A DNA stretch of 32,000 nucleotides from Promethearchaeia archaeon. GTDB lineage: Archaea; Asgardarchaeota; Lokiarchaeia; Sigyniarchaeales; SOKP01. The position numbers and the translations under genes were made by a program. The stretch lies in contig JAWOFX010000029.1 of NCBI GenBank assembly GCA_046497275.1, positions 1 to 32,000 on the forward strand, given 5' to 3'. Shown here in pieces: positions 18,856-30,758 of the stretch (the stretch's first letter is position 1; each line of letters starts with the position of its first letter). The notes under the pieces were generated by a model that did no database searches, had not been told where the DNA came from, and worked only from the letters and a program-made list of their open reading frames with translations.

Positions 18856-19791
18856 TTGGTAAAAGAGAATATAAAAAAAGGGATAATATTTGGGTTTTTT
18901 GCCAATTGTTTCATAGGTCTACAGCCTATAGTAGCTAACGCTCGACCAGAGTATATTGATCCTTTCTTTTATGCAGCATTGACAGTCTTATTTGAATCAG
19001 TTGTTTTCTTACCCATCATGATAATAAAAAGAAGAAAAATTAAAAACGATTTTAATGATGGATTAATTTCTCAAGAAGATTTTTATTCTCTACTATATGG
19101 ATATAGAAAAAATAAATTAGTTTTAATATTTATTGGAGCTGTTTTTGGGATGGGTCAAATTCTGTTTTTTATTGGATATCGTTTAGCAGGTTCAATAAAT
19201 GGGTCATTAGCTCAGAAATCTACAATTTTCTTCTCTCTTTTGTTTGGATTTTTATTTTTAAAAGAAAAAATCACAAAACTTCAGATATTATTTTCGATAT
19301 TTCTCTTCTTTGGACTTATTATTGCTGTTACTGAAGGTTCATTTAATTTATTAACATTAAATCTAGGAGTTCTTGTTATAATTATTCTAACATGTATGTG
19401 GACGATAGCTCATACCTTAACAAAACCTATATTTGAGAAAAACGAGGGGTTCCCTTCTCAAATAGTTGTTATTAGAAATGGAATAGGTGCTGTTATTTTG
19501 TTTAGTATTTTTTTTATTATTTTTCCAATCCAAGTAATAAATATGTTATTAGATCCTGTTTATGTTTTTTGGGGTTTTGCAATGGGAGCGACTTATAGCA
19601 TAGGTTTGTTTTTTTGGTATCAAACTCTTTCATCCTTAGATGTTTCTAAAGCAAGTATCCTCGTTTCTCCGACTCCAGTTGTGACCGCATTATTTGCAAC
19701 TCTGTTATTACATGAAACATTTACATTTTTTGATTTTTTAGGCACTTTAATCATAATCGTGTCTATCATTATAATAATGAGAGAGAAATAG
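18856..19791 (+). CDS. DMT/EamA family transporter
   Basis: About 10 TM helices; GSINGSLAQKSTIFFSLLFGFL, SKASILVSPTPVVTALFA and TTG start. Confidence 0.85.
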   Translation: MVKENIKKGIIFGFFANCFIGLQPIVANARPEYIDPFFYAALTVLFESVVFLPIMIIKRRKIKNDFNDGLISQEDFYSLLYGYRKNKLVLIFIGAVFGMGQILFFIGYRLAGSINGSLAQKSTIFFSLLFGFLFLKEKITKLQILFSIFLFFGLIIAVTEGSFNLLTLNLGVLVIIILTCMWTIAHTLTKPIFEKNEGFPSQIVVIRNGIGAVILFSIFFIIFPIQVINMLLDPVYVFWGFAMGATYSIGLFFWYQTLSSLDVSKASILVSPTPVVTALFATLLLHETFTFFDFLGTLIIIVSIIIIMREK

Positions 19792-28637: not shown

Positions 28638-28808
28638 TAGAACTCTCTTTTTATAGATTTACATTTTTTATTATAATTATTCAATTGACTCTATATTATG
28701 AGTTTTTTTGAAGAAATAGTTAAAACTACTAAAATATATATTGTTAATTTGAGAATTATTTATATAAGAAAATTAAAGTCAAAAAATTTGATCATCAATA
28801 ATAAGATT

Positions 28809-29654
28809 ATGACGGACGGAGAGAGAGAAATACGCTTAACGTGCCCCATTTGCCAAAAAGAGAAAAAAATTCGTATTCCAAATAAAGTTTTTGCTCAAAA
28901 GAAATTTGGAAGCATCAAAATCCAAGTACCTCCAGGAGCGGTGTGTCCCGATCATCAATTCATCGTCTTCCTAGACCCAAAGGGATTGATCCGAGGATAT
29001 GAAAAGATAGATATTCTAATGAAAACACAGCCTGAGGAGGCAAAAAAAGTTATTGAAGGTAAAATAAATCTTAAGAAATTGATTAATATTTTTGGATTGT
29101 ATGGGGTTTTTAGTTTAATCCATTCAAAAATTTTTGGTTATCCTGCCTATATTATCAGGGATAATCCCCCAGAGGGATTAAGTCAACAAATAAATGAATT
29201 CTTTAATAATGTATCTAAAAATAAATTTACCGAAACATCTCAAATTCAGTTTATTGAGGAAACTAAATACGATGATATTAAATTAAAAAATAATACTCTT
29301 TTGATAGATGCTCATAACAACATCCTTCAAACTCCTTGGGAAGAGAAATTGGATTTTGAAGAGTTTATTGTTAAAAAAGCTTTAGAAATAATTGATGAAA
29401 ATGAGCAGAAAGTTCTTTTGCGACAGGATATAAGTAATCTCCTAAAGGAGATTGACCATACTGTTAAGGTATTGGAGGATACTGATGAGATTTATGATAC
29501 TGAATTAATCGAAACTCTCTCCAAGGATTTAAAAATCCCAAAAATGAGCAAATCTCGACTCAATTTAATTAGAAAATTTGTAAAAATGAATATATCAGAA
29601 GATCTTGCTAACAAAGTTAAAAACAAGGTCCAAGAGTTCTTGAATTTCTTATAA
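28809..29654 (+). CDS. Hypothetical protein with an N-terminal Zn-binding motif (CPIC...CPDH)
   Basis: The ORF track starts at 28698, but the first 37 codons look like AT-rich intergenic sequence; ATG28809 (MTDGEREIRLTCPIC) is more plausible. Confidence 0.75.
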   Translation: MTDGEREIRLTCPICQKEKKIRIPNKVFAQKKFGSIKIQVPPGAVCPDHQFIVFLDPKGLIRGYEKIDILMKTQPEEAKKVIEGKINLKKLINIFGLYGVFSLIHSKIFGYPAYIIRDNPPEGLSQQINEFFNNVSKNKFTETSQIQFIEETKYDDIKLKNNTLLIDAHNNILQTPWEEKLDFEEFIVKKALEIIDENEQKVLLRQDISNLLKEIDHTVKVLEDTDEIYDTELIETLSKDLKIPKMSKSRLNLIRKFVKMNISEDLANKVKNKVQEFLNFL

Positions 29655-29936: not shown

Positions 29937-30758
29937 ATGGAAAATATGCAATGGGGTATGAAGAATCGTTTATCCCGTATTATTAATCCAAAAACAGGTC
30001 ATTGCGTAATGCTTGCGATGGATCATGGGTATTTTGGAAATATACCCGGTCAACTTAAATGCTTCAGCGATTTAAATCCCTTATTTGAATATGCTGATGC
30101 ATTAATGCTTACAAGAGGTATGCTTAGGTCATGCGTTGCAGCGGAGATCGATAAACCAATTGTACTTAGAGTATCGGCTGGAGCCAGTATGATGAAGGAA
30201 TTATCTAATGAAGTGATTAATGTAACTATTGATGAGGCAATTAGATTGAATGTGTCGGCAATAACATGTTCTATTTTTGTTGGTGGAGAATTTGAAAAAC
30301 AAACTATTATGAATCTTTCAAAACTCGTGAATTGGGGCCAAGATTATGGGATCCCAGTGTTAGCAGTCACAGCGGTAGGGAGGGAAATGGCAAGGGATGC
30401 TAGATATTTAGGAATGGCAAGTAGATTAGCAGCAGAAATGGGAGCCAATTTTGTTAAAACATATTACTGCGATGATTTCGAAGATGTTATCGGAGTTTGC
30501 CCCGTTCCAATTGTCATTGCAGGCGGAAAAATAGATTTGAATTCCTAATCTATGCCGAAAAAAATCCCAGAAAGGGATGCCCTGCAAATGGCTAAAGATG
30601 CAATAGATAAGGGAGCCGTTGGAGTAGATATGGGAAGAAACATTTTTTTAAGTGATAGCCCTGTTGGAATGATTCAAGCAGTAAGGGAGATTGTCCATAA
30701 AAATGCTTCTGTAGACGAAGCATACGAAATTTATCAACAAGGACCAAAAGGTCTTTAA
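29937..30758 (+). CDS. lsrF: LsrF-like 3-hydroxy-5-phosphonooxypentane-2,4-dione thiolase (class I aldolase/DhnA fold), interrupted by a 30-nt in-frame insert containing TAA
   Basis: [38 protein letters not shown] and GVDMGRNIF. The two ORF-track pieces (29937-30548 and 30552-30758) are in the same frame. Confidence 0.9.
30530..30559 (+). other. Candidate bulge-helix-bulge-like mRNA intron (30 nt, aatagatttgaattcctaatctatgccgaa)
   Basis: 7-bp stem ATAGATT/AATCTAT, central helix CGGA/GCCG (3 G-C pairs plus an A-G mismatch), two AAA bulges; removal restores GGA AAA AAA ATC. Confidence 0.55.

Follow-up and report, generated by a model that had tools for sequence, protein, structure and literature searches.

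Bulge-helix-bulge (BHB) introns have been described in very few archaeal mRNAs. Splicing of one such intron in the pre-mRNA of crenarchaeal cbf5, which encodes a pseudouridine synthase, has been shown experimentally (Watanabe 2002; Yoshinari 2006; Yokobori 2009, PMC2738675), and the HVO_1309 mRNA of Haloferax volcanii carries a BHB intron in its 5′ untranslated region (UTR) that is a substrate of the splicing endonuclease in vivo and in vitro (PMC7714728). In the literature that we searched, tRNA-type introns within coding sequences were limited to crenarchaeal cbf5, with the Haloferax 5′-UTR case in addition (PMC7714728, PMC2738675). Two studies of non-canonical tRNA introns in Asgard archaea (PMC11291895; bioRxiv 10.64898/2026.10.13.758758) reported no introns in protein-coding genes, and we found no BHB intron in an Asgard protein-coding gene in the literature searched, the coverage of which was incomplete, so that their absence is unproven. 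Here we describe a candidate in a stretch of 32,000 nucleotides (the window; positions 1 to 32,000 of contig JAWOFX010000029.1, assembly GCA_046497275.1) from a Promethearchaeia archaeon of the Lokiarchaeia. An aldolase gene of the LsrF family in this window is interrupted by a 30-nt insert at 30530-30559, which we conclude is probably a functional BHB-type mini-intron, spliced from the lsrF pre-mRNA by the endonuclease EndA and the ligase RtcB.

The window contig (C98 in our numbering) is part of a 3.85-Mb metagenome-assembled genome comprising 188 contigs, with 30% G+C and a completeness of 98.9%. A single reading frame runs through the gene from 29937 to 30758, and its sole break is a TAA codon at 30546-30548. 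An earlier note, made from the letters of this DNA alone, had read one frame with 30 extra nucleotides that include this TAA, and translation confirmed that reading; the insert is missing from 114 of 117 lsrF orthologues, a set drawn from species-representative genomes and metagenome contigs and reduced to non-redundant genes. The gene and the predicted parts of its insert are:

29937-30758, + strand: LsrF-family aldolase gene (open reading frame (ORF) and translation), which carries the 30-nt insert
29937..30529, + strand: exon 1, codons 1-197 plus the first two bases of Lys198 (ORF, PF01791, NF006081)
30524..30527, + strand: exon strand of the central helix H, CGGA, which pairs with 30554-57
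30528..30530, + strand: 5′ bulge AAA, with the predicted 5′ cut after 30529
30530..30559, + strand: predicted BHB-type intron, 30 nt, the removal of which restores the protein
30531..30553, + strand: intron hairpin h′, a 7-bp stem (30531-37/30547-53) with a 9-nt loop (30538-46) that contains GAATTC
30546..30548, + strand: in-frame TAA, which terminates the unspliced frame after 203 codons
30554..30557, + strand: intron strand of H, GCCG, the same as the H strand of the insert at this site (site B, below) in orthologue L102
30558..30560, + strand: 3′ "bulge" AAA, with the predicted 3′ cut after 30559; no specific helix follows, leaving an open loop or tail
30560..30758, + strand: exon 2, which opens with the third base of Lys198, runs to the stop and contains the DMGRN phosphate-binding region

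The gene product belongs to the class I aldolase family (Pfam DeoC/LacD, PF01791). Exon 1 alone scores 296 bits against the NCBIfam LsrF equivalog NF006081 (cut-off 297), the intron-less sister gene L096 reaches 395 bits on the same model and matches the E. coli LsrF structures (PDB 3GKF, 3GLC and 4P2V) at E ~4e-89 over residues 4-257. LsrF is a 3-hydroxy-5-phosphonooxypentane-2,4-dione thiolase of the DeoC/FbaB class I aldolase family. By equivalog score and structure matches, lsrF, as the gene had been called in the earlier note, is a fair name.

The architecture first proposed for the insert, consisting of a hairpin, a CGGA/GCCG helix with three G-C pairs plus an A·G mismatch, and AAA bulges, was recovered base for base. 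In the inner helix h′, ATAGATT (30531-37) is perfectly complementary to AATCTAT (30547-53) over 7 bp and adjoins the 5′ bulge. The central helix H has the right spacing, with four positions and AAA on each strand, and three of the four positions pair (C-G, G-C and G-C), A30527 and G30554 being mismatched. RNAfold of 30505-30600 returned the proposed structure as the minimum-energy fold at −25.1 kcal/mol, compared with −16.8 ± 3.1 kcal/mol for shuffled sequences (z = −2.67; 1 of 200 shuffles was as good). No local pairing of exon bases that would form an outer helix h was found after the 3′ AAA, and because a specific exon outer helix is absent, the motif is of the relaxed HBh′ class rather than canonical hBHBh′. 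The earlier suggestion that the motif is relaxed therefore stands, but a distant pairing of TTGCAGG with CCTGCAA, which had been included as its outer helix, does not belong to it. Complementarity of at least 6 of 7 positions between these segments occurs in 30 of the 117 orthologues, nearly all of them without an insert at this position, and the site-B carrier L102 shows only 4 of 7. We rejected the distant helix as an intron feature on these grounds; the pairing is a by-product of conserved coding sequence. A search of the window against Rfam matched no family.

These features suggest how the intron would be removed. In the transcript, exon CGGA would pair with intron GCCG to form the central helix (3 bp plus A·G), and the intron would fold back as its 7-bp hairpin, leaving AAA on each strand. 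A heterotetrameric (αβ)2 EndA would cut after the second base of each AAA, and RtcB would ligate the exons to give GGA-AAA-AAA-ATC (AGGKKI) and an enzyme of 263 residues. The predicted spliced junction is GGCGGAAA/AAAAATCCC, in a message 30 nt shorter, and the released 30-mer would probably be circularized. Without splicing, only a 203-residue fragment would be made, from which the end of the TIM barrel, with the conserved DMGRN segment, would be missing. Among 5.8 billion proteins there was no exact match to the spliced product, the best being 92% identical. Cleavage and ligation of this imperfect copy, like their efficiency, are inferred from what can be observed, namely the anatomy of the insert, the comparative pattern, the selection on the exons and the genes for the machinery.

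A relaxed HBh′ motif would require a broad-specificity EndA, and the genome appears to encode such an EndA pair together with an RNA ligase. The two EndA genes (PF01974) are at C46:30159-30764 and C168:8025-8627. The alpha-type protein most resembles the catalytic subunit of the heterotetramer of A. pernix (3P1Z_B) and keeps the Tyr/His/Lys region and the equivalents of K44 and R46 of the specific loop; the second protein has no catalytic His and is a beta-like paralogue. The loop lysine K44 is required for non-canonical substrates (PMC3241643), and an (αβ)2 EndA carrying the same loop has been reported in Asgard archaea (PMC5829648). There are two full-length RtcB ligase genes (C100:5154-6461, − strand, and C145:7959-9266, + strand; 571 and 553 bits on PF01139, respectively). 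ARAGORN identified 13 tRNA genes without introns, or 25 with anticodon-loop introns allowed, in this 98.9%-complete genome, and introns at non-canonical positions probably interrupt the majority of its tRNA genes. The finding of 13 uninterrupted tRNA genes is consistent with the heavy tRNA-intron load of other Asgard classes (PMC11291895; bioRxiv 10.64898/2026.10.13.758758).

Alignment of relatives for presence or absence of the insert and for compensatory changes, a check proposed in the earlier note, bore out the expectation of both. The 117 orthologues contain 28 inserts, each 30-37 nt long, which fall at four sites:

Site D: after VML, 30 nt, 3 genes
Site A: after DHG, 30 nt, 8 genes
Site B (the insert of the window): within the first Lys codon of AGGKK, 30, 36 and 37 nt, 3 genes
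Site C: within the Asp codon of GVDMGRN, 30-32 nt, 14 genes

All four sites are in highly conserved motifs, and one gene carries three inserts and two genes carry two. All 28 inserts parse in the same way: an exon strand of 4 nt is followed by a 3-nt bulge and a hairpin, and then by the complementary strand, also of 4 nt, and a second 3-nt bulge. At site C, 95.7% of cells were paired, a value reached in 0 of 500 shuffles and compared with 26-42% in slid controls, and the central exon-intron helix was 100% paired. The exon/intron pair in H at this site is C-G in 5 cases, A-U in 2 and U-A in 2, the intron base tracking the synonymous Gly codon (GGC, GGT or GGA). At site A, 93.1% of cells were paired, four stem pairs have changed on both sides, and a short exon outer helix is also present, giving the canonical hBHBh′ motif. 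At site B, L102 (37 nt, CGGT/GCCG) and L021 (36 nt, AGGT/GCCT) are broken at the position identical to that in the window, where two bases of the first Lys codon precede the insert. L021 has A-U as the outer pair of H, and both this genome and L102 have C-G there, which is one compensated pair among only three sequences. The three site-B introns have short words in common (AATTCCTA; GGAATT-like loops) as well as the H strand; shared words in AT-rich introns of 30-37 nt are not decisive for homology by descent.

These comparisons bear on the possibility that the insert has no function at the RNA level and either arose as an error of assembly or binning or is a small palindromic mobile DNA element that duplicated its target site. 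The genome is indeed a metagenome assembly of 188 contigs, and GAAAAA is present on both flanks of the insert. However, many independent assemblies, produced in different studies, contain inserts of this design, and the flanking repeats are the two A-rich bulges, which differ at other sites. Moreover, the genome contains no further copy of the insert at up to 5 substitutions, so it is not a repeat element. We give this explanation hardly any credence.

A second possibility is gene fission, in which the TAA at 30546-48 ends one fragment and an in-frame ATG at 30552-54 begins another, the 203- and 68-residue products of coupled translation together forming one barrel. The sequence TAA-TCT-ATG, with 3 nt between the two signals, is present, and the downstream 68-codon ORF is open. 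Nevertheless, there is no Shine-Dalgarno-like sequence 5′ of the ATG, in-frame ATGs are not conserved among the sister introns, and fission leaves unexplained both the pairing of the insert with the exon and the exon/intron covariation at the sister sites. Fission would also be unworkable for a frameshifting insert that this genome has in the P-loop of EF-1alpha (below), and we regard it as highly improbable.

Ribosomes might instead bypass the insert during translation, as is known for T4 gene 60 and the mitochondrial "byp" elements; the T4 gene 60 type has matched codons with a stop directly after take-off. Here a ribosome would leave AAA at 30528-30 and land on AAA at 30558-60, skipping the hairpin, and the matched codons are exactly 30 nt apart with the hairpin right after the first. 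However, the take-off codon is followed by AUA and not by a stop, conserved pairing of the exon with the 3′ end of the insert would not be expected from bypass, and the EF-1alpha insert and those at lsrF sites A, C and D lie in codon phases 1 or 2 and have no matched take-off and landing codons. It is therefore extremely unlikely that the insert is bypassed. Read-through cannot rescue several of the lsrF inserts, whose lengths of 31, 32 or 37 nt shift the frame.

Inserts of this design are not confined to lsrF. In this genome, the EF-1alpha gene has a 32-nt insert in its P-loop (GHIDHG/KSTMMG; H = ATGG/CCAT; contig C83, + strand, ~19113-19144; L176), and the gene for RNA polymerase A′ has a 30-nt insert with a 9-bp stem (CMGHFGH/IELARP; H = GGGC/GCCC; contig C83, + strand, ~1644-1673; L177). 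The rule of cutting after the second bulge base restores both exactly. Five further genes (L171-L175, in the order given) carry BHB-shaped inserts of 30-32 nt:

C141:2920-4045, − strand: enolase-superfamily gene, with Pfam MR_MLE_C split into contiguous halves, 14-156 and 161-218
C171:11591-13175, + strand: nucleoside-phosphorylase-family gene, split HS/TGG, with contiguous Pfam halves
C59:7740-8824, + strand: ABC ATPase, split in Walker B; a weaker case with plausible Pfam halves
C105:25520-26713, − strand: thiolase-like gene; a weaker case with plausible Pfam halves
C46:5118-6600, + strand: Prismane/CODH-family gene with a BHB-shaped insert; Pfam halves unclear

Because essential genes cannot be pseudogenes, the organism must remove such inserts.

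The combined set of 35 inserts, 28 in lsrF and seven in other genes of this genome, was used to determine the cut register, defined as the number of bulge nucleotides (0-3) kept with the exon, with restoration of the reference translation as the criterion. Register 2, a cut after the second bulge nucleotide, restored the protein at all 35 inserts. Registers 0, 1 and 3 did so at 2, 12 and 21 (1, 9 and 13 under a stricter test), and the mirror-image geometry fitted 0-2 inserts. No other register suits the whole set, and register 2 is the established rule for EndA.

Both exons are under strong purifying selection. The closest comparison is with L096 and L151, metagenome contigs from different samples that show ~90% DNA and 98.5% protein identity to the window gene and have no insert. 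Between the window gene and L096, dS was 0.61 and dN 0.0085 (ω = 0.014), and for exon 2, which lies 3′ of the TAA, ω was 0.02. Changes polarized to the branch of the window gene comprise nine synonymous and one conservative non-synonymous substitution (I to V), a ratio that argues against long-standing decay but would also fit a very recent insertion. Signs of a pseudogene named in the earlier note (dN/dS near 1, other lesions) were looked for, with the contrary result on both counts. After removal of their inserts, all intron-bearing lsrF genes are full length and free of stops, with pN/pS of 0.02-0.12 against close relatives; these genes include the one with three introns and a clade that shares intron A across dS ~1.

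Several observations weigh against splicing of the window copy. The inner position of H is A·G here, compared with U·G in the other two site-B introns, which the analysis counts as paired at all four positions; the mismatch arises because this genome has GGA, and not GGT, for the second glycine. The outer helix needed for the canonical motif is missing. Removal of 30530-30559 restores the protein, as had been claimed, but this is weak evidence by itself because the bulges consist of A-runs: five distinct 30-nt deletions yield one nucleotide product, and all four cut registers (0-3) give an identical protein, so that exact restoration of the frame does not discriminate at this site. The insert is also a singleton, missing from its closest relatives (L096, L151 and G002), and as a singleton it is possibly recent, in which case conservation of the exons cannot prove splicing. 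Finally, a scan of the genome for split genes with hairpin inserts (BHB geometry plus ORF fusion), which the earlier note had suggested, recovered the window locus, RNA polymerase A′ and others, and thus provides verified examples. Its counts did not exceed those of a control with mirror geometry (for instance, 23 against 29 in the control when the stem had to reach 8 and each flank 100 codons), because hairpins at the junctions of adjacent genes swamp them. The scan therefore yields no enrichment statistic and is not used as evidence.

One explanation for this pattern is that a BHB-like sequence was inserted recently and is poorly spliced or not spliced at all, the gene being a young pseudogene or weakly expressed. 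Consistent with this idea, the sister genes of 98.5% identity and other members of the genus have no insert, the A·G mismatch lies beside the 5′ bulge of a motif with no outer helix, and exon conservation cannot date the insertion. Nevertheless, we consider a young pseudogene unlikely. The gene has no other lesion, and the 9:1 ratio of synonymous to non-synonymous changes on its own branch compares with ~3.6 non-synonymous changes per synonymous change if it were neutral. The mismatch is not peculiar to this copy either, as one H mismatch is also found in the candidate introns of the thiolase-like gene (the same inner A·G) and the ABC ATPase gene (C·A), and the known mRNA introns of cbf5 typically have relaxed motifs (PMC2738675). 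All of the alternatives explain less than splicing does, particularly as regards exon/intron covariation and the frameshifting sibling inserts, although each keeps a small probability for this single copy. Thus, the earlier proposal of a relaxed BHB-type intron in an Asgard lsrF gene is supported by the inserts of the orthologues, their covariation, selection on the exons, other genes of the same genome, and the EndA and RtcB genes.

Two orthologues have features of their own. L102, a metagenome contig (SDBT01038897.1), has two frameshifting introns, a 37-nt one at site B and a 32-nt one at site C; their lengths sum to 69 nt, so that the downstream exon is in the original frame and naive translation gives one long ORF with 23 extra residues. 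L012 (G018:C144) has no insert, and in it two in-frame TAA codons replace GAA (Glu) two codons apart, giving GG*Y*KQ compared with GGEYEKQ. The same G-to-T change has thus occurred twice in a gene that is otherwise well conserved; L012 could be a pseudogene, or the stops could stem from sequencing error or have some other cause.

The distribution of inserts over the lsrF gene tree is very patchy, with minimum numbers of changes of 5, 3, 12 and 2 for sites A, B, C and D, respectively, and carriers adjoin near-identical non-carriers. Such patchiness may reflect frequent precise loss, frequent gain at the same site, or transfer between alleles. The insert sites in lsrF (A-D), EF-1alpha, RNA polymerase A′ and the ABC, phosphorylase and enolase-type genes fall in the most conserved motifs, often beside Gly codons, and the overall pattern recalls homing elements. 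The presence of an insert at one site in distant lineages, and its absence there from near-identical sisters, suggests a novel route of spread, which may be homing-like or may run through recombination of alleles. A broader interpretation, which we offer tentatively and would place a little short of an even chance, is that Lokiarchaeia carry BHB mini-introns of 30-37 nt that repeatedly enter and leave coding genes by such a route, with a preference for conserved motifs (the EF-1alpha P-loop, the zinc/clamp motif of RNA polymerase A′, Walker B, and AGGKK, DHG and DMGRN of LsrF), and that the copy described here is a young member.

The genes around lsrF in the window encode a radical SAM protein, a protein without a Pfam family, an alpha/beta hydrolase, a nitroreductase, a short-chain dehydrogenase and an M28 peptidase. 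None of these neighbors provides the context of an lsr operon (kinase, isomerase or transporter). Directly 5′ of lsrF, at 28698-29654 (+ strand), is an ORF of 318 residues that belongs to no Pfam family and has a CPIC...CPDH Cys/His motif near its N-terminus.

If splicing occurs as proposed, Lokiarchaeia would extend introns of this kind to metabolic and core informational genes, with several per gene and fast turnover between close relatives. Gene callers would then systematically mislabel such genes as truncated, frameshifted or pseudogenes, and essential proteins could be expressed only with the help of EndA and RtcB. Interrupted mRNAs would already be tolerated, and mended by protein enzymes, in the lineage closest to eukaryotes, which would bear on how introns could spread before the spliceosome.

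Among systems already described, the HAC1/XBP1 mRNAs of eukaryotes are also spliced by proteins: Ire1 cuts two stem-loop sites, a tRNA-type ligase or RtcB joins the exons, and the downstream frame changes. The splicing proposed for lsrF would similarly combine a protein endonuclease with a tRNA-type ligase on an mRNA, but the endonuclease of the HAC1/XBP1 system is unrelated and its splicing is stress-regulated, and no homology is implied. The HVO_1309 intron lies in an untranslated leader rather than in a coding sequence, and its host is a euryarchaeon with a homodimeric enzyme of narrow specificity. The non-canonical tRNA introns of Asgard archaea resemble the lsrF intron in their presumed dependence on EndA and RtcB, in a motif that is half exon, and in repeated gains with no known route of arrival; in contrast, the host RNA of the lsrF intron is an mRNA, so that excision must be exact to the base for the frame to be kept. 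The cbf5 intron is likewise a small intron in an archaeal coding sequence, with a helix-bulge motif that is partly exon and often relaxed, and it is tied to a heterotetrameric broad-specificity EndA and has been patchily gained and lost among relatives. However, lsrF encodes a metabolic aldolase and belongs to Lokiarchaeia, an Asgard lineage, and not to Crenarchaeota, and its splicing is predicted here rather than shown by experiment. The lsrF family also differs from cbf5 in having four intron sites with up to three introns per gene, and the genome described here in carrying inserts in several other genes, including those for EF-1alpha and RNA polymerase A′.

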